From the NCBI GenBank assembly GCA_028697145.1, contig JAQVFR010000003.1:3988-67987 (forward strand): a stretch of DNA of 64,000 bases. The letters run 5' to 3'. The notes under the pieces were generated by a model. That model was given only the letters and a program-made list of their open reading frames with translations, was not told the DNA's origin and made no database searches. Position 1 is the first letter of the stretch; each line of letters starts with the position of its first letter. Origin of the DNA: Actinomycetota bacterium. Lineage in GTDB: Bacteria > Actinomycetota > Geothermincolia > Geothermincolales > RBG-13-55-18. Below, piece after piece: positions 3,489-53,818 of this stretch. A program made the position numbers and the translations under genes.

Positions 3489-4619
3489 ATGGGCGAAGAA
3501 AACCTCGAGGAGCAGCGGCGGTCCCTTGACCGCTCCAGGCTGCGGCGCGGCTTCATACTGGCGGTGTCCCTCTCCGCCGCTACCCTCGTGATCATCTCCC
3601 TGGTCACCCTGGATCGTGAGACCTTCAGCGCCCTCTCCAACCTCTCGCCCGGCTTCCTCGTCCTGGCCGCGGGCCTCTCCCTGGGCAGGTGGCTGTGGTC
3701 GATTGTGCGCATGCGCCTGCTGATTAGATGTGCCGGCAGGGACGTCCCCGTGCGCAACATAGTGAAGACGGTCTACGCCGGGTACTTCACCGGCCTCGTC
3801 ACCCCCCTGCGCGCGGGCGGTGTCACCGGGGAGATGTTCTTCCTATACGAATATGGGCTGGGCGCGGGCGAGGCTGTGGCCGTGGTCTCCTTCGGCGCCT
3901 GCATCTCCACGGCTCTGCTCCTGCTGCTCTTCCCCTTCGCCATCTGGATAGCCCGGAGCTTTATAGACCTGTCCATTACCATCCAGGGAGTCCTCTTCTC
4001 CGCTCTGGCCATAGGGCTTCTCTACCTGGCCCTGGTACTGTGGGCCATCCTGAGGCCCCATGCCACGGTGGAGAAGACCCTGATCGGATACTCACCCGCC
4101 TTTCTGCGCAGGCGTTCCTGGTACCGCCGCTTCCTCGCGCGCCTCTCCGCCGAGATACAGGCGTTCGCGGGATCCCTGCGGCAGCTGGCGAAGATAGGCG
4201 TGAGGAAACTGGCTTTAGTGGTCGTCCTGACCATGCTCTACTGGTTCACGGGTTTTATGGCCATCCCCGCGGCCGTCGTCGGCCTTGGTTACGGCTCGTA
4301 TTTCTGGCAGGCCGTGGTGGCGCAGCTGGTGGTGCACATCCTCATGCCCTTCGTGCCCACTCCCGGGGGCAGCGGCATCGGCGAAGTCGGCTTCCTCTAC
4401 GTCTACAAGAGCATCCTTCCCGACGTAGGCGTGGCGGGCCTGCTCACCCTCATCTGGCGTTTCATCGATTTCTATCTCGGTCTCCTGGTGGGAGGAGCGG
4501 CCTTCATCCTCATCATGCGGGACATCGGCCGCTCGCCCCGGCGAGAATCCGACGAAGCGGCAGGCGGGGTGGAGGGAGAAGCCGTTGAGATGCAGGCTCC
4601 GCCGCGCGGAAAGACATGA
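3489..4619 (+). CDS. Polytopic membrane protein, lysylphosphatidylglycerol-synthase transmembrane-region/flippase-like family (UPF0104)
   Basis: 376 aa with about eight hydrophobic helices and a PxxPGGxGxxE motif near the C-terminal helices (PFVPTPGGSGIGEVGF), as in the LPG_synthase_TM family. Family assignment is from memory. Confidence 0.45.
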   Translation: MGEENLEEQRRSLDRSRLRRGFILAVSLSAATLVIISLVTLDRETFSALSNLSPGFLVLAAGLSLGRWLWSIVRMRLLIRCAGRDVPVRNIVKTVYAGYFTGLVTPLRAGGVTGEMFFLYEYGLGAGEAVAVVSFGACISTALLLLLFPFAIWIARSFIDLSITIQGVLFSALAIGLLYLALVLWAILRPHATVEKTLIGYSPAFLRRRSWYRRFLARLSAEIQAFAGSLRQLAKIGVRKLALVVVLTMLYWFTGFMAIPAAVVGLGYGSYFWQAVVAQLVVHILMPFVPTPGGSGIGEVGFLYVYKSILPDVGVAGLLTLIWRFIDFYLGLLVGGAAFILIMRDIGRSPRRESDEAAGGVEGEAVEMQAPPRGKT

Positions 4620-4714
4620 GCGGATGCGCAGCACCTCCACTGATATAATCAAGACGTGTCCAGGCGCGGCGGTCACGCGGCCGCCGCGATACCATCGGGA
4701 TGAAAGGAGTTCGC

Positions 4715-5530
4715 ATGTTCGGACCGGGTGATCCCACGGCGATCATCGGCGAGAGGATAAATCCCACCGGACGCGCCAGGCTGGCCGAGGAGCTGCGCGA
4801 GGGGAAGTTGGACAAGGCGCTCTCCGACGCGGCCGCCCAGGCGCAGGCTGGAGCGGACTATATAGACGTCAACGTGGGCGCGCCCGGCGTGGACGAGACG
4901 GTTCTGCTGCCCCGCCTGGTTAAGGCGGTGGCGGAGGAAACGGGCCTGCCCGTGTGCGTCGACTCCGCCGATCCCGACGCCCTGGCCGCGGCCCTGGCCG
5001 TATACGGGGTGCCTGAAGCCATCGTCAACTCCGTCACCGCGGACGACGAGAGCATGGACGCCGTCCTGCCCCTGGTGGGCAAAGCGGGGTGTTACGTCAT
5101 CGCCATGACCAAGGACATGGGCGGTATACCCGCCACCGCGGAGGAGCGCCTGGCCCGGGCGGAGCGCATAGTCGAGCGCGCCTCGGCCCATAGCATCCCG
5201 CCCGGGCGCATCCTCGTGGACTGCCTTACCATCCCCGCCGCCACCGAAACCAACGCGGCCGCCGTGACCCTGCGCTCCATTTCCCTCATCCGCGAGATGC
5301 TGGGCTGCCCGGTGGTCCTGGGCGCCTCTAACATCAGCTTCGGCATGCCCGAGCGGGCGGTCATCAACTCCGCCTTCCTCTGCCTCGCCATAGAGGCGGG
5401 GATGTCGGCGGCCATCGTCAACCCACTGGAACCGGGCCTGGTCCTCTCCATGCGCGCCGCCGATTTCCTCCTGGGCAAGGACCGCATGGGGCGCGCTTAC
5501 CTGAAATACTACCGGGCCCACAAGGCGTGA
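4715..5530 (+). CDS. Pterin-binding methyltransferase (methyl-H4folate/H4MPT:corrinoid methyltransferase, AcsE/MtrH-like)
   Basis: IGERINPTG motif at the N-terminus and a DHPS-like TIM-barrel signature. The RBS GAAAGGAG sits 5 nt before the ATG at 4715 (the ORF-track start 4700 lies upstream in frame). A TATAAT box is at about 4645. Confidence 0.75.
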   Translation: MFGPGDPTAIIGERINPTGRARLAEELREGKLDKALSDAAAQAQAGADYIDVNVGAPGVDETVLLPRLVKAVAEETGLPVCVDSADPDALAAALAVYGVPEAIVNSVTADDESMDAVLPLVGKAGCYVIAMTKDMGGIPATAEERLARAERIVERASAHSIPPGRILVDCLTIPAATETNAAAVTLRSISLIREMLGCPVVLGASNISFGMPERAVINSAFLCLAIEAGMSAAIVNPLEPGLVLSMRAADFLLGKDRMGRAYLKYYRAHKA

Positions 5531-30653: not shown

Positions 30654-30687
30654 AAAAAACGGCCTCTTTGTTTCGAAAAGAGGCCGG
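30654..30687 (-). terminator. Rho-independent terminator (minus strand)
   Basis: 9-bp stem cggcctctt/aagaggccg followed on the minus strand by TTTTTT. Confidence 0.6.
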
Positions 30688-30927
30688 TTTCACTATTAGC
30701 TCAGAACGTTATTAGTGACCATCTCATAAAACGTTCGTCATCGCTTCCTCTTAGACTGATCTAAACCTAGTGCTTTCATCTATCTAGTAAGTCCATCCTT
30801 AAGATAAAGCACGGACTCGTGCCCTTCTATGATTCAGATCAGGCAACTTTGATCATGAGAACGGCAGTTGGACAGCGGCAGTCTCGAGGCGTATCCGGGG
30901 CGGCGCGAACCTTCTGCTCCGTAATGC

Positions 30928-31170: not shown

Positions 31171-31560
31171 CCGAGGTAAAAAGACGATCGGGGCAGACCG
31201 GTCAGATCATAACTTCCGCGGCTCAAAGCCCCCACCCTCTCATCACCTCGCTTAATAGGCACCAAGTGTTTTTGTCCCTTTACGGTGCTGATTGATACCT
31301 GCTGTTGATTTTAGCAGAGAGCCCGGTGGGGAATGCCATTAAGGCCGTGGCCTGCATCTATCCGCGTTCTTCAAAAAGATGTTTCGCCTCGTCATGTATG
31401 GGGAAACACGATATAACGATATATATACGGTCCTGTATAGACAAAGGAAAAATATGTTATAATACGGTTGCTTGCACAATAGTTATATATCAAGGGATGC
31501 TGGGATCCGCGTTCTCGACATGGTCACCTGGGGACGCGGGGAGCTAAATGGTGAAACCGG

Positions 31561-31590
31561 CCCGATCGCAAGAGTGGTCGGGTTTTTTTA
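31561..31590 (+). terminator. Stem-loop plus T-tract, plus strand (terminator/attenuator of a possible leader or sRNA)
   Basis: cccgatcg-caagag-tggtcggg followed by TTTTTTTA. Upstream are TATAAT at about 31456 and a TTGCAC hexamer nearby. Confidence 0.4.
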
Positions 31591-43243: not shown

Positions 43244-43328
43244 TGGTGCCCGGGGCGGGAGTCGAACCCGCACGAGTTTCCCCGAGGGATTTTAAGTCCC
43301 TTGTGTCTACCGGTTCCACCACCCGGGC
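43244..43328 (-). tRNA. tRNA-Leu (anticodon UAA), type II with long variable arm
   Basis: Minus-strand sequence GCCCGGGTGGTGGAACCGGTAGACACAAGGGACTTAAAATCCCTCGGGGAAACTCGTGCGGGTTCGACTCCCGCCCCGGGCACCA. It has a 7-bp acceptor stem, anticodon loop CUUAAAA, a GGTTCGA T-loop and an encoded CCA. Confidence 0.85.
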
Positions 43329-46426: not shown

Positions 46427-47581
46427 ATGGGATCAAGTCCTTATTTCACCGAGGAACACGATATGCTCAGGCAAAGCATACGGGAGTTCGTGGAGAAGGA
46501 GCTGGCGCCCCACGCCGAGGAGTGGGAAGAGGAGGAGATGTTCCCCAACTGGGTCTTCAAACGCATGGGCGAACTCGGCTTCCTCGGGCTGCGTTACCCC
46601 GAGGAGTACGGGGGAGGCGGCGGGGATTACTTCACCGAGATCGTGCTCATGGAGGAAATAACCCGCTGTGGGTCGGGCAGCCTGGGCATGGCCGTAGGTG
46701 TGCAGGTGGGAATGGCCACCCCTCCCATCCTCAAGTTCGGCAACGAGGAGCAGAAGCAGAAATACCTGGTTCCGGCAATAGCCGGCGACAAGATCGCCTG
46801 CCTGGGCATCACCGAGCCGGGCGCCGGGTCCGACGTAGCCAGCCTGACCACCTACGCAGAGAAGGTCGACGGTGGCTGGAAGGTCAACGGCAATAAGATA
46901 TTCATCACCAACGGCTGGCGCGCCGATTTCATGACCCTGGTGGCGCGCACCGAGAAGGTCAAGGGCTACAAGGGGATCAGCCTGTTCCTGGTGGACTGCG
47001 ACACCCCCGGTTTCGTGAAGTCCCGCAAGCTGGACAAGGTGGGGTGCCGCGCCTCTGACACGGCGGAGATCTTCTTCGAGGACATGTTCATCCCCGACGG
47101 TTCCATGCTGGGCGAGGAGGGCAAGGGCTTCTACCACATAATGTGGGAGCTGCAGGGCGAGAGGCTTATCGCGGCCGCCCTGTCCGTAGCCGGCTCGAAG
47201 CTGGTCCTGCAAGAGGCCATTCAGTACACAAAGGAGAGGGAGCAGTTCGGCAAGCCCATCTGTAAGAACCAGGCAATCGCCCACCGCATCGCCGACCTGG
47301 CGACCAAGCTCGAGGCCTGCGAGGCGTTCCTCTATTCCTGTGCGTGGAAAGTCAACCAGGGAGAATTCCCGGCGGGTGAGATATCCATGGTCAAGCTCAT
47401 CAGTTCCCTGGTGGCCTGCGAGGTGGCCGACGAGGCCATGCAGTTCATGGGCGGCTACGGCTACATGATGGAGTACCCGGTGCAGAGGTCGTGGAGGGAC
47501 TCGCGCCTGGGGCGCATCGGCGGCGGTACCGACGAGATCATGCGGGAGATCATCGCCACCACCATGGGCCTGTACGCCTGA
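46427..47581 (+). CDS. Acyl-CoA dehydrogenase (classical short/medium-chain type)
   Basis: Begins MGSSPYFTEEHDMLRQSIREFVEKELAP...; has YGGGGGDYF, GITEPGAGSDVAS and a C-terminal MQFMGGYGYMMEYPVQRSWRDSRL. The RBS AAAGGAG is present. Confidence 0.9.
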   Translation: MGSSPYFTEEHDMLRQSIREFVEKELAPHAEEWEEEEMFPNWVFKRMGELGFLGLRYPEEYGGGGGDYFTEIVLMEEITRCGSGSLGMAVGVQVGMATPPILKFGNEEQKQKYLVPAIAGDKIACLGITEPGAGSDVASLTTYAEKVDGGWKVNGNKIFITNGWRADFMTLVARTEKVKGYKGISLFLVDCDTPGFVKSRKLDKVGCRASDTAEIFFEDMFIPDGSMLGEEGKGFYHIMWELQGERLIAAALSVAGSKLVLQEAIQYTKEREQFGKPICKNQAIAHRIADLATKLEACEAFLYSCAWKVNQGEFPAGEISMVKLISSLVACEVADEAMQFMGGYGYMMEYPVQRSWRDSRLGRIGGGTDEIMREIIATTMGLYA

Positions 47582-47837
47582 TAGCGCCCGCAACGGCGGC
47601 GCCGCAGGTGTGGCTGCATACCGCGGGAGGATACCGGCCACAAACATGGGTCAGCTCAAAAGGGAGGAAACCGGCCGCGCCGCATGGGCGACGCAAGGTT
47701 CAGCGGATTTGCACGCGATGAAAAGGGGCGCGGATCGCCGCGCCCCTTCCGTTGCGTGAGAATATACCCTTGTTCGCCCAGTGGGGTCCCGGTCGGCCTT
47801 CGGCCCGGGGCGTGATGACGAGAGAAAAGGGCCCCCG

Positions 47838-48263
47838 TCAGGGAAGATAGACGGTCGCCTCTCCCCCCTTGAGCACCTCGCTGCCGTCGTCTTTCTCGGC
47901 CCATACATCCAGGACAACAAGGTTGCCCTCCAGCTTCTCCCGCACCTTTCCCTTGAAGATCACCGTCTGTTCGGGTATAACCATGCCCCGGAACTGGCAG
48001 GACAGCTTCTTGAGATAGCCGGGATCGCCGATCCAGTCCACGACCGTCTTCCCCAGCAGGGCCATATTGAAGAGCCCGTGGGCGATGACGTCGGGGAGCA
48101 TGGCCACTTCCTTGGCGAAAAATGGATTGGTATGGATAGGGTTGAAGTCGCCGCTGGCCCCTGCGTATATGATGGCGTCCATGCGGTCGAACTTGTGGGT
48201 GAAGGCCGGGACTTCCTGGCCCACCTGGATATCGTCGTACTTGAGGCTCGTGAGTTCCGTCAT
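47838..48263 (-). CDS. MaoC-like dehydratase (hot-dog fold), C-type subunit of a tandem pair
   Basis: 142 aa beginning MTELTSLKYDDIQVGQEV...ASGDFNPIHTNPFFAKEV...AHGLF. The ATG at 48263 follows GGGGAGG. The ORF-track N-terminal extension is R-rich noise. Confidence 0.75.
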   Translation of the reverse strand: MTELTSLKYDDIQVGQEVPAFTHKFDRMDAIIYAGASGDFNPIHTNPFFAKEVAMLPDVIAHGLFNMALLGKTVVDWIGDPGYLKKLSCQFRGMVIPEQTVIFKGKVREKLEGNLVVLDVWAEKDDGSEVLKGGEATVYLP

Positions 48264-48268
48264 GGCGA

Positions 48269-48706
48269 TCAACCTCCCCGGATGATGAAGGTGGCCCGGG
48301 AACGGCACACCAGCTCGTCTCGCTGGTTTTTTGCCTCCCCCTCGTAGACCACGAAGTCCAGGTTGCCCTTCTCGTAGATGTCCGCTATCTTCCCGGTCTC
48401 CACGATGATGTCGTTCGGCTTCACCACCGTGAACCACTCGAACTCCTGGGCGCCGTGCACCAGCATGGCCAAGTTGAGCTTGACCTCCGGGTCCAGGAGG
48501 ACCATCCCCGCGCCGCGCAAGGCGTAGACGGCGGCGAAGTTGGGCATGCCGATTATATCCCCGTACTTCGTGCCCCTGGAGAATTCCTCGTCGTGATAGA
48601 TGGGTCGCTCGTCCTTGGCGGCCGAGGCGTACTCCCTCATCTTCTCTCGACCGATCTCGTACTTGAGCGGTCCGTAAGCCTTCCCGATCCACTTGTGGTC
48701 GACCAT
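48269..48706 (-). CDS. Hot-dog fold protein (MaoC N-terminal-like), second subunit of the tandem pair
   Basis: 145 aa beginning MVDHKWIGKAYGPLKYEIGREKMREYA... The RBS AAGGAGTGAGG precedes the ATG at 48706. The stop lies 5 nt before the next gene's start. Confidence 0.65.
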   Translation of the reverse strand: MVDHKWIGKAYGPLKYEIGREKMREYASAAKDERPIYHDEEFSRGTKYGDIIGMPNFAAVYALRGAGMVLLDPEVKLNLAMLVHGAQEFEWFTVVKPNDIIVETGKIADIYEKGNLDFVVYEGEAKNQRDELVCRSRATFIIRGG

Positions 48707-48914
48707 GGCCTCACTCCTTTCCGCATTTACCCCTCCCCATGCAAAGCAAGAAGATTCTATCACCGCCCGCTGCGCCCGGACAACAATGAAAAGGCCCCGT
48801 GGGGGCCTTTTCCAGCCTATTTGATGGTCCTTTCGTTTCTCTATTTTGTATCCGTATGGGAGGGCGGGGGTTTTTGCCTGTATTCGACAGGGCGTTCCCG
48901 CCTCCTCTGGTCTC

Positions 48915-49406
48915 TTAGCTCCCGCCGCGGTCCTGGTTCTGCGCGCCGTCACCATCGCAGGTGCTGTCGCAGGAACCGTCACAGAGCCTGTCCCGGGTGC
49001 GGTCGCAGTCACCGGCGCATTCGCCGCCCTGCACCGCGCCTCGCGCCTGCGGTCCCGCCGCGGCACCTTCCTCCGGGGTCTCGTCGCTCCATCCCTTGCG
49101 GCTCTGGGTGGAATCGCCGTCACATTCTCCGTCACAGTCGCGCTCGCGCAAACGCTCCTGAACGCAGTCGCCTTCGCACGCGCCGTTCTCGGCACCGACA
49201 CAGTTCTCCGCGCGGATATTGCTTTCCTCGCCGGCGTTGCGGCACCCGAAGGAGAAGGCGTCGCCGGCCACGCGGGTGATCCCTTCACCCTCCGCGCATC
49301 TGCCGGCTCCCCCGTCCGACACCCCTGCCGCTACGGCAATTCCAGCCGAGACGAGCAGCGCCAGCGCCACTGCGGCCACCGCGATGATCGTTCCTCTCTT
49401 CTTCAA
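48915..49406 (-). CDS. Secreted Cys-rich, Asp/Glu-rich protein of unknown function
   Basis: RBS AAAGGAGGTGA then TTG at 49406. Signal peptide MKKRGTIIAVAAVALALLVSAGIAVAAG. At least 16 Cys in repeated C-x(1-3)-G-x-C and CDG-x-CD patterns. It is divergent from the ECF sigma gene. Confidence 0.5.
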   Translation of the reverse strand: MKKRGTIIAVAAVALALLVSAGIAVAAGVSDGGAGRCAEGEGITRVAGDAFSFGCRNAGEESNIRAENCVGAENGACEGDCVQERLRERDCDGECDGDSTQSRKGWSDETPEEGAAAGPQARGAVQGGECAGDCDRTRDRLCDGSCDSTCDGDGAQNQDRGGS

Positions 49407-49583
49407 ATCCAGCTCACCTCCTTTGCCAGAATCGTTCTTACCCTTTAATACGAACCGGGCTATCGTCATGTACGCGTTATTTTTCGCCGACGCACCGGTA
49501 CAATAAGTAATCGTCATGGCTATCAGAGCGTTCATGTGAGACCCTTACTTCGTATATACAGGTAAAAGCGAAAGGCGGAGTTT

Positions 49584-50126
49584 TTGGCGCCCCTGGAGGA
49601 ACTGGCACTGCGCAGTGCCGCAGGCGATGAGAGTGCCTTTGCGGAATTATACGGGACCCTCCTCGACCCGGTGTTCAGGTACCTGTACTGGAACATTGGC
49701 TCCAGGGAGGATGCCGAGGACCTGGCCGAGGAAGTCTTTCTCAAGTGCCTGGTCAATATCAGCAGATATGACCCGAGGCGAGGCCCCTTCAAGGCCTGGG
49801 CCTTTCGCATTGCCCACAACCTGCTGGTGGACCACCAGAGGCGTCAGGGCAGGAGGGGCAGGGAAGAACTGAGGGAGGACCTGCAAGACGGGACGGCCTC
49901 GGCGCCGGATAGCCTGGAGGAGCAGGAGAGGGCAAGGATCGTGAGGGAGACCCTGGAGGAATTGCCCTCCAACCAGAGGCAGGTTATAGCGATGAAATAT
50001 TTCGCGGAGATGAGCAACGCGGAGGTGGCCAGGGCCATAGGCCGCAGCGAAGGAGCGGTGAACGCCCTGCAGCACCGCGCACTGCGCCGTCTAGGCAGAA
50101 TACTCGAGGAACGAGGTTGGAGATGA
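49584..50126 (+). CDS. ECF-subfamily RNA polymerase sigma-70 factor
   Basis: Region 2 LAEEVFLKCL...AWAFRIAHNLLVDHQR and region 4 QRQVIAMKYFAEMSNAEVARAIGRSEGAVNALQHRALRRL. TTG start follows GGCGGAG. Confidence 0.8.
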   Translation: MAPLEELALRSAAGDESAFAELYGTLLDPVFRYLYWNIGSREDAEDLAEEVFLKCLVNISRYDPRRGPFKAWAFRIAHNLLVDHQRRQGRRGREELREDLQDGTASAPDSLEEQERARIVRETLEELPSNQRQVIAMKYFAEMSNAEVARAIGRSEGAVNALQHRALRRLGRILEERGWR

Positions 50127-51121
50127 TGGCCGGCAGGAGAAGCAACGGCAAAGACGACCTGGAAACGGCGGCAGCCGCCTTCCTGGCTGAGGTGGAGATC
50201 CCCCCCGCCCCGCAGCGTTTGCGGGAGTACGGCCTCCAGCGCGTGCTGGTGAGGGCGAGGGCCAAGGAGGGCGGGAAAGCGCCCGCCACCGCCAGGCGCG
50301 CTTACCGCAATCCCGCTCTCTTGCGCCACACGCTGGTCGTTGTCGTGGCCGTACTCCTGGTGATGACGTTATCCACTACGGGAGCGTATGCGTTCTCCCT
50401 GGACGCCCAGCCCGACTCCCCCCTGTACGGGACCAAGATCTTCTTCGAGCGAGCGCGCGTTATTCTCAACCTGTCCAGCGCGGGTGACATGCGCCTGGAG
50501 ATGGATTTCTCGGAGCGCCGCATGGAGGAACTGCGCAGGATGGCCGCGTCCGGCAAGGCCGGAGGGGCGGAGCGCTGGCTGCGCGAGTACGGCCGTAACA
50601 TCGAAGTCGCCGGATCCCTCGCAGGGGCCGTGTCCGGGGAGGATGCCGAGCGCCTCTCCCTGCAGTTCCAGGAGATGCTGGAACGGCAGGCCCTGATGAT
50701 GCAGGAAATACGAAGGGGGCAGCCATCAGGGCTGGAAGAGCCGATCGAGGGCGCCTTCCGTATCTGCGACCAGGAAAGGGCGCGCATGCGCCAGCGCTGC
50801 GGGCAGCAGGGCGCCGGGGCGCCGGCGCAGGAAGGTGGCCAGGGCGATGGTGACTGCCCTCGCACGGAGGATTCGTCACCTCAGGAGGGGGCAAGCTCCG
50901 CCACCTTCATCGAGCCCTCGGGCAGCGGCAGCGCACCGGGGGAGTCCAGCCCCCTTTGCGGCGAAGGAACCCTTTCAGGTGATGCCCTTGAGGCCGGCGA
51001 TGAGCCTGTGGAAGCGGCCCCGGATGCCTCCCAGCCGAGGATCGATGCCCCGGAAAGCGAGCAGGCCAGCAGGGATATGGAATACCGGGGAGACGGCCCG
51101 GGCAAGGGACATATGCCTTGA
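50123..51121 (+). CDS. Putative anti-sigma factor, single-pass membrane protein
   Basis: ATGA overlap with the sigma-factor stop. One TM helix (LLRHTLVVVVAVLLVMTL). The extracytoplasmic domain has coiled-coil character and an acidic Pro/Gly/Ser-rich tail. Confidence 0.55.
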   Translation: MMAGRRSNGKDDLETAAAAFLAEVEIPPAPQRLREYGLQRVLVRARAKEGGKAPATARRAYRNPALLRHTLVVVVAVLLVMTLSTTGAYAFSLDAQPDSPLYGTKIFFERARVILNLSSAGDMRLEMDFSERRMEELRRMAASGKAGGAERWLREYGRNIEVAGSLAGAVSGEDAERLSLQFQEMLERQALMMQEIRRGQPSGLEEPIEGAFRICDQERARMRQRCGQQGAGAPAQEGGQGDGDCPRTEDSSPQEGASSATFIEPSGSGSAPGESSPLCGEGTLSGDALEAGDEPVEAAPDASQPRIDAPESEQASRDMEYRGDGPGKGHMP

Positions 51122-51129
51122 CCGCGGGC

Positions 51130-51627
51130 TCAGGGGGGAGGTTGGTCGCCGGAAGAGGTAGTATCCGTCTCCTCTTCATGGTAATCAAGGACGATGATGG
51201 GTATCTCCCCGGGCTTGACGAAGCCCATGCCGCGCGCCTCCGACTCCACGAAGGTATCGGTCATGTCCCATGCCTTGCGCTCCTCCAGGACCGCGGTGCG
51301 GGCTTTCTCCTCCGCCAGTTGGGACTCGGCCCGCGATAGATTACGGCGGCTCTCGATCACGCGCGTCACCGGAGCGAAAAGAACGTAGACGATCAGGCCC
51401 GCCGCCAACAGGGTCAGTATGACCGCCGCTGTCCTGCGCCTTCTCCTCACACCAGCCGGCGCCTCGCGCCGCCTGGGGGCGGCATGATCCGAGCCTTCCT
51501 TTCCAGCTTCCCTTACCCTGCTCCCCTGCACGAGGCGCAATTCGCGGGCTTCATCTCTCTGGCGGCGCGGCGCGGCCCGTGAAGCGCGAGTTGTCCTGTG
51601 GCCCATGGGTTGCGATACCCTGCTCAT
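51130..51627 (-). CDS. Septum formation initiator family protein (FtsB/DivIC-like)
   Basis: Basic N-terminus, one TM helix (AAVILTLLAAGLIVYVLF), a coiled-coil (AESQLAEEKARTAVLEERKAW) and a conserved ARGMGFVKPGEIPIIV block. Confidence 0.65.
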   Translation of the reverse strand: MSRVSQPMGHRTTRASRAAPRRQRDEARELRLVQGSRVREAGKEGSDHAAPRRREAPAGVRRRRRTAAVILTLLAAGLIVYVLFAPVTRVIESRRNLSRAESQLAEEKARTAVLEERKAWDMTDTFVESEARGMGFVKPGEIPIIVLDYHEEETDTTSSGDQPPP

Positions 51628-51831
51628 TTTTTTACTCTTCTTTTTTTTGCCAACAACTCTTGCATACTACAACAATAGTATAATATTCCACCATTAACTT
51701 ACAAGCGCATCCGGTTTAACGGACTTCTCAACGATGGGCGGGATCTATTCCTGCTCCGTATGCATGGCGCGTGGCACGGCGCAAGCCACGGAAAAAGCGG
51801 GGGCATGCTGGTCAGAGTCGTGCCGTCAAGG

Positions 51832-53475
51832 CTATCGCGGCGGGCCGGAATCGGTCCATTTCAGCCTCTCCCGCAGCTCGTCGAACCTCTTCCTCTTCGC
51901 GGGATCGATGCGCTCATAGGCGAAATCCGCCTCCTCGGTATAGAAGCCGGTGTCGGCGGCGGCGTGCGGGTCGAAGGCGGAGGATATCCTTCTCTGCCAG
52001 CGGTTGTAGTTTCCCGCCAGCGGGCTCAGGGCCTTTCGTACCGGCGCGATGAAAGCCGACAGGGGGGTCATGCACAACTCGATGGCATTGAGGGTGGCGG
52101 AGAACTCGATGGGATTGAGGGCGTCCAGGGCTCCCTTGTTGTCCACCGAATAGGCGTATAGGACCTCGCAGTGGGCCCAGGTGTTGTTCTCGTAGGGGAC
52201 GAAATAAGGGTTGTTGCCCCCGTCCTCCATGATGCACTCCCTCTCCATGAACTCCTGCTTGGCCTCTGCGATGGCATCCACCCACTTCATCTGGGTATCC
52301 AGGGCCTCGTTGCCGTCCAGGCAGGTCCCGAAGATGCCGCCGGGCCGGAAGGCCAGGGGGATGATGCTCACGCGCAGCAGGTTGAGTCCCATGAAAGAGG
52401 CCATGGGCCCCATCTTGTTCAGGTCCAGCATGAAGCCGTCGTATTCCAGGACGATGCGCTTGAGCACCTGCTCCTGGAAGGCTATCTCCCCCGCCGAGCT
52501 TCCGGCCAGGACGAGGGTCAGGGGGTAGGCGAGGGTGTCCGCGAGTATGGGCCTGATGGCCTTGGTGTCCAGGAGAGAGAAGCCGGTGTGGGGCATGACC
52601 AGTGCGGTATAAGCCACCGGGGCTATCCTGACGCAGCCGTATCCGATCTCGGATTCCCCGATCTTGTAGAGCGCGTCCGCGAACTCCCGGGGTCCGGGAA
52701 AGAACATCATGTAGAAACGCATGTGCTCCGGCACCTCCACGCGGGAGTCCAGCACCAGGCCCTCGCTCTTCAGCCGGGCCGGTCCCGGCCAGTTGTAGAG
52801 CTTGAGGGCGCACTTGGTGAAGACCCCCAGGCCCGAGAGCGCCCCCAGGGCCCCCCGCATGATGCCCCGCAGGGAGGGTCCGGGGCCGTCGCCACAGTAC
52901 CATCCCAGGCCGGACCCGGGGGTGCCCAACCTCAGCACCTCTCCGTCGGGCAGGACCCACTCCACGCCCACGACATTGCGCGCACTGTAGGCCATGTAGA
53001 TGCAGTCGTGCCCCACCCCGCTCATGGAGGTGGCGCTGGCCAGGGGCGAGCAGGAGGGACCGGCACCGATGATGTGGGTGTTGAGCCCCAGTTTCATGGT
53101 CTCGGCCTGGAGTTGGGCGCCGCTGACGTAGGGCTCGACCACGGCGATCATGTTGCGCTCGTCGATGTCCAGGATGCGGTCCATGCGGCGCATATCCAGC
53201 TGCACCACGTCCTCGGTGGTGGGCCCGGACGCCGCGCCCCAGCCGGTTGAGAGCGCCTTGAACTTGAGGCCGTGACGGTTGCATGTGCGCACGACCTCCT
53301 GCACCTCCTCGGTGCTGGACGGCAGGACAGCCGCTACGGGCCGGGTGATCCACAGCGCGGGGTCGTCGTTGAGGAAAGGCTGCCAGGTGTAACCCTCCAG
53401 CACCGCGGGCTCGCGCGATACGTTATCCGGACCTACCGCGGCCTCGAGTTCCCTATATGCCTCATCCGAGATCAT
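51832..53475 (-). CDS. FAD-linked oxidase, VAO/PCMH-type FAD-binding family (tandem paralogue 1)
   Basis: Begins MISDEAYRELEAAVGPDNVS..; has a PCMH-type FAD-binding domain (VVRTCNRHGLKFKALSTGWG..) and a C-terminal substrate domain. The RBS GGAGGTGG precedes the ATG at 53475. Confidence 0.7.
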   Translation of the reverse strand: MISDEAYRELEAAVGPDNVSREPAVLEGYTWQPFLNDDPALWITRPVAAVLPSSTEEVQEVVRTCNRHGLKFKALSTGWGAASGPTTEDVVQLDMRRMDRILDIDERNMIAVVEPYVSGAQLQAETMKLGLNTHIIGAGPSCSPLASATSMSGVGHDCIYMAYSARNVVGVEWVLPDGEVLRLGTPGSGLGWYCGDGPGPSLRGIMRGALGALSGLGVFTKCALKLYNWPGPARLKSEGLVLDSRVEVPEHMRFYMMFFPGPREFADALYKIGESEIGYGCVRIAPVAYTALVMPHTGFSLLDTKAIRPILADTLAYPLTLVLAGSSAGEIAFQEQVLKRIVLEYDGFMLDLNKMGPMASFMGLNLLRVSIIPLAFRPGGIFGTCLDGNEALDTQMKWVDAIAEAKQEFMERECIMEDGGNNPYFVPYENNTWAHCEVLYAYSVDNKGALDALNPIEFSATLNAIELCMTPLSAFIAPVRKALSPLAGNYNRWQRRISSAFDPHAAADTGFYTEEADFAYERIDPAKRKRFDELRERLKWTDSGPPR

Positions 53476-53818
53476 GCAGCCACCTCCATGTCCTGGCACG
53501 GACCGTTTACGCAGTCGTTGTCGCTTGTGTCCGACACGCTGTCATCTTCCCTGGACAAATCATAAGGCAAAGTACGTTTGAAATAAAGTGGCGCGTTCTC
53601 CTGGTCTAGCAGGGGTAAAAGCCCAGCAGGGCCCTCGCGGAACATTACCGACCGCCGCGTCAGCTATCGCTGTCGCAGGCGAAGTCCACCTGCGGCGTCA
53701 TGGTGCGCCCGCTGCCCTTGATGACGATCATGTCGATCTTGTGGAAGGAAAGCAGGTCGGGCAGCCAAGCGGTGCCTTCCCCTGCTGAACCAGGCCGGCT
53801 GCCCGCGGCAGCGGTACC

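Follow-up and report, generated by a model that had tools for sequence, protein, structure and literature searches.

In Mycobacterium tuberculosis, SigK and its anti-sigma factor RskA control a small extracytoplasmic function (ECF) regulon that consists of the autoregulated sigma/anti-sigma operon and the neighboring genes for the secreted proteins Mpt70 and Mpt83 (mpt70, mpt83). Exported proteins made under a sigma factor can also modulate its sensing step, as do RseB in the Escherichia coli sigma-E system and CseA in the Streptomyces sigma-E system. CnrH, CnrY, and CnrX form a metal-sensing ECF system of group ECF291 (PMC7826278). The Streptomyces sigma factor BldN drives genes for secreted surface proteins together with the gene for its own anti-sigma factor (PMC6101532). 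A locus that recalls these systems lies in a 64,000-nucleotide stretch of DNA from an Actinomycetota bacterium (contig JAQVFR010000003.1 of assembly GCA_028697145.1; the whole stretch is called the window below). It combines a BldN-like ECF sigma factor, a single-pass anti-sigma factor with a DUF5667 domain, and a divergently transcribed gene for an exported repeat protein rich in cysteine and aspartate, here called the Cys-rich protein.

The favored reading, to which a probability of about one half is assigned, is that these genes constitute a three-gene ECF module whose exported Cys/Asp protein binds cations or metals or buffers thiols. The sigma factor would be held at the membrane by the anti-sigma factor and, once released, would transcribe its own operon from CGTTCAT-N15-CGTAT and the monocistronic Cys-rich gene from a back-to-back CGTACAT-N15-CGTAT. 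The product would be exported by the Sec route, acidic, and probably disordered, with two repeats of the form C-x-G-D-C-x9-13-C-D-G-x-C-(D-G-x-C)-D-G-D-G-x-Q. It would act outside the cytoplasmic membrane, where its clustered Cys and Asp residues may serve as ligands for cations or thiophilic metals, or as a buffer of thiol/disulfide chemistry. If the anti-sigma ectodomain and its Cys-bearing acidic tail sense the same condition, a homeostatic loop would result. The elements of the module are as follows, with the basis of each call in parentheses.

48915..49406, minus strand: gene for the Cys/Asp-rich repeat protein, 163 amino acids (aa), TTG start, stop codon included (open reading frame (ORF) and translation)
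49320..49406, minus strand: codons 1-29 of that gene, a predicted Sec-type signal peptide or possibly a signal anchor (sequence, conservation, AlphaFold helix 5-20)
49095..49190, minus strand: repeat 1, aa 73-104, ENGACEGDCVQERLRERDCDGECDGDSTQSR, with twin CX3C and core cysteines C77, C81, and C95 (blastp, alignments)
48927..49031, minus strand: repeat 2, aa 126-160, QGGECAGDCDRTRDRLCDGSCDSTCDGDGAQNQ, with core cysteines C130, C134, and C150 (blastp, alignments)
49414..49421, minus strand: ribosome-binding site GGAGGTGA of the Cys-rich gene, 7 nt 5' of the TTG start (sequence)
49448..49474, minus strand: ECF-type promoter of the Cys-rich gene, CGTACAT-N15-CGTAT, 41 nt 5' of the start codon (motif scan, conservation)
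49529..49555, plus strand: ECF-type promoter of the sigma/anti-sigma operon, presumed autoregulatory, CGTTCAT-N15-CGTAT, 28 nt 5' of the TTG (motif scan, conservation)
49584..50126, plus strand: BldN-like ECF sigma factor, 180 aa, TTG start (Pfam, NCBIfam, PDB search)
50123..51121, plus strand: single-pass anti-sigma factor, 332 aa, with DUF5667 (ATGA overlap, Pfam, AlphaFold)

The Cys-rich gene is a real coding gene under purifying selection, because its homologues keep the ORF and the core cysteines at 34-69% identity, with a ratio of nonsynonymous to synonymous substitution rates (dN/dS) of 0.17-0.36 in 12 pairwise comparisons, including seven against the window gene and four between homologues. 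GC content by codon position agrees with the called frame, and the ribosome-binding site and start position are kept across homologous loci. The initial annotation, made from the sequence alone, had proposed this 163-aa product on the strand opposite to an ECF sigma gene, and both the ORF and the divergent arrangement stand. It had also warned that the cysteine pattern could come from a wrong reading frame of GC-rich DNA, and long overlapping ORFs do occur on both strands (e.g., 48846..49448, plus strand, and 48269..49288, minus strand). That the ORF is no gene at all is nonetheless barely conceivable: it has a ribosome-binding site, a promoter, and a terminator, its Cys columns are conserved, and it recurs in dozens of loci, so that the comparative data refute the artefact. 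At least one public record of the protein (P0001, in NCBI and Logan) is 206 aa long and begins at an upstream ATG (49535, minus strand). Because the conserved promoter and ribosome-binding site fall within this extension (window 49407-49535, minus strand), the TTG is taken as the real start and the annotated protein is probably 43 codons too long. Most homologues begin where the window TTG lies.

The sigma factor belongs to the ECF branch (group IV) of the sigma-70 family, as evidenced by its scores for Sigma70_r2 (65.2 bits) and Sigma70_r4_2 (51.5 bits), both over the cut-off, a further match to Sigma70_ECF, and a TIGR02937 score of 109.5 bits (cut-off 42.9). An apparently co-transcribed anti-sigma gene and a putative promoter with a CGT -10 element agree with this placement. 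The best NCBIfam model is TIGR02952, the BldN family, at 136.3 bits, and among PDB chains the top match is 6dxo_A (E = 2.8e-24), which is BldN in the Streptomyces venezuelae RsbN-BldN complex (PMC6101532). The TIGR02952 score lies under the equivalog cut-off of 206.45, which keeps the protein out of the BldN equivalog group (TIGR02952/ECF121). The N-terminal pro-extension of BldN and an RsbN-type partner are both missing; of the 180 residues, 21 precede the sigma-2 match, and 28 nt separate the promoter from the start.

The TGA stop of the sigma gene overlaps the ATG of the anti-sigma gene (ATGA at 50123-50126), and the anti-sigma factor has one predicted transmembrane helix (residues 64-92), both as the initial annotation described. 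Its match to DUF5667 (PF18915; 42.6 bits, cut-off 27) and an architecture that is the same throughout the related loci identify a DUF5667-type anti-sigma factor, for which 49 homologous clusters were found. The AlphaFold model, built with 40 homologues, has a predicted local distance difference test (pLDDT) score of 75.7, rising above 90 in the ectodomain, and displays three short cytoplasmic helices, the transmembrane helix, and a five-helix ectodomain (102-225). The C-terminal tail, which is rich in acidic residues, Gly, and Gln and contains extra Cys, is predicted to be disordered. No sequence relative in the PDB, RsbN included, was found at E <= 1, and a Foldseek search of the model against the PDB returned nothing below E = 0.1, the matches being designed or tetratricopeptide-like helical repeats that offered no hint of a ligand. 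A literature search for DUF5667 found no article naming the domain, and one for DUF5666 found incidental mentions only.

C215 of the anti-sigma factor is conserved in at least 90% of the members and C226 in most, and the tails of relatives are likewise acidic and of low complexity. At about aa 211-230, the ectodomain ends in a conserved A-Y-x-x-C-[DN]-Q-E-R-x-R-M-R-Q-R-C-G. The segment C-[DN]-Q-E-R-x-R-M-R-Q-R-C resembles the core C-D-Q-E-R-L-R-E-R-D-C of the Cys-rich repeat; an hhalign comparison of this segment with the repeat profile covered 10 columns and was not significant (P = 0.05, probability 1%). Many anti-sigma homologues terminate in G-H-[IVLM]-P, possibly a tag for recognition.

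The strongest support for a regulatory link between the sigma factor and the Cys-rich gene comes from their promoters. The 27-nt motif CGTWCAT-N15-CGTAT has exactly two matches in the window, one ahead of each of the two genes, against 0.04 expected from shuffled sequences. The promoter of the Cys-rich gene is represented by 22 non-redundant conserved instances with the consensus gCGTA[CT]AT-N15-CGTAtTAAGGgtT, and that of the sigma gene by 24, nearly fixed at 27 nt from the start codon. At both promoters the distance from motif to gene is retained, and the remaining spacer, 177 to ~600 bp long, cannot be aligned. The two promoters also change together between lineages. At locus L024, assigned to Ca. 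Geothermincolia by its record name and set in an unrelated neighborhood, both read CGTTCAY-N15-CGTTC. At L044 and L045, where the sigma factor is 45% and the anti-sigma factor 34% identical to those of the window, both read CGTATGY-N15-CGTAW, a motif with only two matches in the L044 locus, at the two promoters. Given this rarity, the retained positions, and the lineage co-variation, one sigma factor very likely reads both promoters, and the one encoded at the locus is the obvious candidate. The motifs argue strongly that it activates its own operon and also transcribes the Cys-rich gene, which would form a transcription unit by itself. The initial annotation had suspected ECF control of the adjacent gene from the habits of such systems and had pointed to AAC-N16/17-CGT promoters; the shared, conserved, and co-varying motif, which can be read as xAC-N17-CGT, suggests an ECF-type promoter and lends sequence-based backing to that suspicion.

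The L044 locus further shows that the association of sigma factor and Cys-rich gene survives rearrangement, since its Cys-rich gene follows the anti-sigma gene, in the same orientation, instead of lying divergently upstream. P0077, a complete relative of the L044 Cys-rich protein, ends in CEGECDGDCLRTKERLKDGSCGGGNC, which is the family motif. In L044 (4313 to the contig end at 4747) and L045, the Cys-rich gene contains exact tandem 38-aa units ECDGDCQECQNQECVRNQGAESQLENGFQNCEG. Both contigs terminate inside this gene, and the tandem repeats probably break the assemblies. The copy number of the unit varies among relatives, with one in P0077 and two in P0078.

Other related loci carry different partners or a reduced module. 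At L024 (5436-6239, minus strand), the divergent gene encodes a 267-aa acidic protein with a signal peptide, apolipoprotein-like amphipathic helices, and no Cys, and it stands behind the same promoter motif as the L024 sigma gene. In the remote low-GC locus L047 (2729-4999, plus strand), the sigma factor and a DUF5667 anti-sigma factor with a (D/E/T/P)-rich tail are followed by a very acidic D/N-rich lipoprotein. This lipoprotein has a near-threshold match to DUF5666 (25.7 bits, cut-off 27), which suggests a general DUF5667-DUF5666 association. DUF5667 modules thus seem to be accompanied by an acidic exported protein whose identity changes from lineage to lineage, and the Cys/Asp repeat protein seems to be the version of this clade. 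At L003/L013 (GCA_964529285.1, ~4287-4745), the sigma gene retains only region 2 (152 aa), having lost region 4, and there is no anti-sigma gene; both promoter motifs remain, as does a Cys-rich gene shortened to 145 aa with 9 Cys, a combination that may represent a module in decay. Its joint decay was considered as evidence of a functional link and rejected as proof, because only one such case was seen and the Cys residues near the N-terminus vary in intact loci too.

The Cys-rich protein begins with MKKRGT, about 20 hydrophobic residues, and AVAAG, in keeping with the signal peptide that had been proposed for it. Neither a lipobox nor a twin-arginine motif is present in the N-terminus; the first Cys is residue 37, after AGR, which does not fit the bacterial lipobox [LVI][ASTVI][GAS]C, and no sortase or lipid anchor was found in the protein. 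The mature region is acidic, as had been noted, with 29 Asp and Glu against 14 Lys and Arg in the 132 residues scored, and contains no His and three aromatic residues. The earlier count of at least 16 cysteines was too high, the number being 12, whereas the repeated motifs it named are there: CxGDC occurs twice (CEGDC, CAGDC), as does CDGxCD (CDGECD, CDGSCD). These motifs belong to a unit of about 35 aa present in two copies, NGxCxGDC-x9-13-(C)DGxC(DGxC)DGDGxQxR, and repeats 1 and 2 match each other by blastp at E = 1e-10. AlphaFold2 modeling of the family with 13 sequences yielded an N-terminal helix only (pLDDT 43, predicted template modeling score 0.14), and the protein is probably disordered. 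Such predicted disorder would suit a polypeptide whose folding depends on metal ions or disulfides.

The family is confined to uncultured Actinomycetota and rare: of 1.84 billion cluster representatives, ~20 belong to it. Thirteen relatives emerged from a word-indexed search of 5.8 billion proteins, and an exhaustive hidden Markov model search of the cluster representatives with a mature-domain profile yielded 21 matches at E <= 1e-3, one spurious and one borderline. The spurious match, P0024 (2026 aa, CxGxCDG-type repeats), reflects compositional similarity and was discarded; the borderline one, P0027 (E = 6e-4), adjoins a two-component system and was not counted. The host records are metagenome-assembled genomes of uncultured Actinomycetota/Actinobacteria from Zodletone, SURF, and other sources; the window itself matches assembly GCA_034678765.1. 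That the protein matched no recognized family was correct: Pfam and NCBIfam scans of it, and a Pfam scan of 22 members, gave noise only (OATP, PARP). The search for homologues and their tie to ECF sigma genes, which had been recommended, shows that the pairing with a sigma/anti-sigma operon recurs.

Conservation is uneven along the protein. The signal segment (residues 1-29) is best conserved, with a mean identity to the window protein of 0.67 versus 0.28-0.63 elsewhere, and members also share a variable N-terminal stretch, SFxCRNxGEExxIRAENC. The six core cysteines, three per repeat (C77, C81, C95, C130, C134, C150), are kept in 17-22 of the 22 members, those of repeat 1 in 19-22. C91 is present in 12 of the 22 and C142 in seven. 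The Cys-rich and anti-sigma genes are the fastest-evolving in the neighborhood, with identities across loci of 34-69% and 37-56%, respectively, versus 77-93% for MaoC2 and ACAD.

The gene, its export signal, the identities of the sigma and anti-sigma factors, and the shared promoter are thus on firm ground; for the chemistry of the exported protein and the signal that induces it, we infer a role from composition and context, and the metal-binding or redox-buffering function and envelope-stress control that the initial annotation had proposed are conjecture in the same way. Metal binding or thiol buffering is favored because the cysteines are clustered beside Asp and Gly, His is lacking, aromatic residues are few, disorder is predicted, and the presumed sensor has a Cys-bearing tail. 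Several observations weigh against it. Cys totals vary from 5 to 15 among the members and further loci examined and are often odd, and the secreted partner of the L024 module is Cys-free. Cysteine chemistry may not be the essential feature, because some members, P0017 among them, have lost many Cys yet retain [DE]R[LI][RQ]DGS...DGxGxQ. No nearby gene indicates metals or redox. The entire neighborhood is syntenic in the main clade, so that adjacency there is uninformative by itself. The promoters were assigned by motif logic and are putative targets of the sigma factor. Finally, the low AlphaFold confidence may just reflect a shallow alignment of 13 sequences.

In order of weight, the competing explanations are a feedback partner of the anti-sigma factor, a disulfide-stapled surface protein, a peptide precursor, and the frame artefact dismissed above. 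The foremost of these, still unlikely, is that the Cys-rich protein is a regulatory partner comparable to RseB or CseA, which binds the anti-sigma ectodomain or tail, tunes its stability, and provides autocrine feedback, possibly dependent on the redox or metal state of the Cys-rich protein. The Cys-rich gene is the sole apparent local target of the sigma factor besides the operon itself, the modeled ectodomain is a helical-repeat bundle, extended peptides being common ligands of this shape, and the DUF5667 modules of other lineages each adjoin a different acidic exported protein (amphipathic in L024, a DUF5666 lipoprotein in L047). The fold search, however, gave generic helical matches only. 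The same explanation can draw on the fast evolution of the Cys-rich and anti-sigma genes, likewise noted for Streptomyces RsbN (PMC4255298), although any surface-exposed protein is also expected to evolve fast. The motif at the end of the ectodomain that resembles the repeat core would also suit a contact between the two proteins, but the resemblance spans only the 10 non-significant hhalign columns. A wider version would make this a property of the DUF5667 class: the helical-repeat ectodomain would read the state of a self-made exported acidic reporter that is swapped by lineage, with the Cys-rich protein as a redox or metal probe gating sigma release. This is a speculative proposal, less probable than either of the two leading alternatives; if true, ECF systems would have a mode of sensing that has not been described for them, the reading of a reporter polypeptide.

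A structural role in the envelope, improbable though it is, ranks just after the regulatory partner. The protein would be an analogue of the BldN-controlled chaplins and rodlins, stapled by disulfides, with each twin CX3C forming a two-disulfide hairpin. The CX3C-x9-13-CX3C spacing does recall twin-CX3C hairpins, which are known from the small Tim proteins, and a single dedicated target gene with a strong ribosome-binding site would suit a surface protein. In such hairpins, the two CX3C motifs lie on antiparallel helices linked by two disulfides. The pattern CX3C-x9-CX3C occurs in both repeats; AlphaFold shows no hairpins (pLDDT 43) and no helices there, several cysteines of the twin motif are poorly conserved (C91 and C142), and Cys totals are often odd. 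The sigma factor is nearest to BldN, whose regulon encodes secreted surface proteins (PMC6101532), but chaplins differ from the very acidic, hydrophilic Cys-rich protein, and none of the 22 members has a Chaplin, rodlin, or other Pfam match. It lacks a sortase or lipid anchor, and source names (Zodletone spring, deep subsurface, sediments) suggest anoxic habitats, where extracellular disulfides would be less likely. A small, Cys-rich, exported, lineage-restricted, and fast-evolving protein might also be the precursor of a secreted peptide natural product, such as a ribosomally synthesized and post-translationally modified peptide (RiPP), a bacteriocin, or a defensin-like peptide. This is very improbable: no radical-SAM, lanthipeptide, protease, or ABC-transporter maturation gene was found within 10 kb on each side at locus L021 or in the flanks of the other loci, and the N-terminus is a Sec-type signal, not a RiPP leader, so that the leader and maturase of the ranthipeptide/SCIFF type are both lacking. 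Moreover, the protein is strongly acidic (29 D+E versus 14 K+R), unlike known cationic antimicrobial peptides, and its gene holds a conserved chromosomal position amid housekeeping genes. A role in metal binding or thiol buffering remains the favored reading.

Downstream of the Cys-rich gene, two further elements were called, each by consensus scan only.

48788..48812, minus strand: terminator-like hairpin 3' of the Cys-rich gene
48783..48754, minus strand: sigma-70-like promoter for the MaoC genes

The Cys-rich gene is probably monocistronic, judged by this hairpin and by the separate sigma-70-like promoter before the MaoC genes, whose identity is taken from precomputed annotation. The gene order in the main clade is pyruvate kinase, FAD oxidase, DivIC, anti-sigma factor, sigma factor, Cys-rich protein, two MaoC, ACAD, DUF501, and Ppx. 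In the window (46427-53499) and in related loci, the module and a MaoC-MaoC-ACAD-MaoC block lie between the DivIC/FtsB-like gene and DUF501-Ppx. DivIC/FtsB-like and DUF501-Ppx genes are adjacent in many actinobacteria; if that adjacency holds, the module and the MaoC/ACAD block look like an insertion into a conserved cluster. Farther away, the window contains two c-di-GMP-II riboswitch aptamers (30673-30757, minus strand, 61.3 bits; 31486-31569, plus strand, 47.9 bits), both over the Rfam gathering score, which point away from each other in the lowest-GC part of the window (GC 0.537, 30-32 kb). A tRNA gene lies at 43247-43328 on the minus strand (Rfam RF00005, 58.5 bits).

Databases contain many ECF sigma factors paired with DUF5667 anti-sigma factors, and this locus offers a compact example, with a defined motif, one dedicated target, and promoters that co-vary naturally from lineage to lineage. 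The sigma factor and its presumed promoter might be used together as an orthogonal switch. Extracellular metal binding or thiol buffering by the Cys-rich protein, if real, would illustrate how metal or redox stress in the envelope is handled by anaerobic Gram-positive lineages. If it instead contacts the anti-sigma ectodomain, it would add a new signaling layer. If neither holds, it is another lineage-specific ECF target.

Among polypeptides of similar composition, metallothioneins are small cytosolic proteins with ~15-30% Cys in CxC, CC, or CxxC clusters that form metal-thiolate clusters. Without metal or disulfides, Cys/Asp-rich polypeptides of this kind form little secondary structure. The Cys-rich protein resembles metallothioneins, twin-CX3C proteins, and thrombospondin type-3 repeats in its clustered Cys with Asp and Gly, its few aromatic residues, and its CX3C pairs 9-13 residues apart. 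It differs from metallothioneins in its export signal, in having only CX3C spacings, and in a Cys content of 12 in 135 mature residues (9%), and no Pfam metallothionein or TSP_3 model matched it. The label "metallothionein-like" that it had initially received fails on these grounds: CxC and CC clusters are absent, and the protein carries an export signal.

The SigK/RskA system shares with this locus the small regulon design and the single-pass anti-sigma factor, and differs in its ECF group, its RskA-type anti-sigma factor, and its targets, which are FAS1-domain antigens rather than Cys/Asp repeats. RseB and CseA are not homologous to the Cys-rich protein; the likeness is that an exported product of the same sigma factor could feed back on the ectodomain, a role that is hypothetical here. 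In CnrH/CnrY/CnrX, an extracytoplasmic metal signal leads to metal-handling proteins, which is the logic proposed for this module; the ECF group, the anti-sigma factor, and the efflux-pump output are different, and no metal-related gene was seen at the window locus.

The closest relative is the sigma-BldN/RsbN pair of Streptomyces (ECF121; features from PMC7826278), which is nearest both among solved structures (6dxo_A) and among curated models (TIGR02952). Both systems have an adjoining single-pass anti-sigma factor with a large, fast-evolving extracytoplasmic part, and both have secreted-protein targets (PMC6101532, PMC4255298). In contrast to BldN, the window sigma factor scores under the equivalog cut-off (136 vs 206 bits) and is without the N-terminal pro-sequence, and its anti-sigma factor, of the DUF5667 type, does not resemble RsbN in sequence. 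Where BldN has a hydrophobic amyloid-former as target, the target here is an acidic Cys/Asp repeat protein, and the host is an uncultured, deep-branching, and probably non-mycelial actinobacterium. Read from its sequence, the overall design appears to be that of a standard ECF system, with a sigma factor, a co-transcribed single-pass anti-sigma factor, autoregulation, and an adjacent target. What is new is an unannotated, lineage-restricted target family with a promoter that is now defined, together with a hint that the acidic exported partner of DUF5667 modules can be exchanged.

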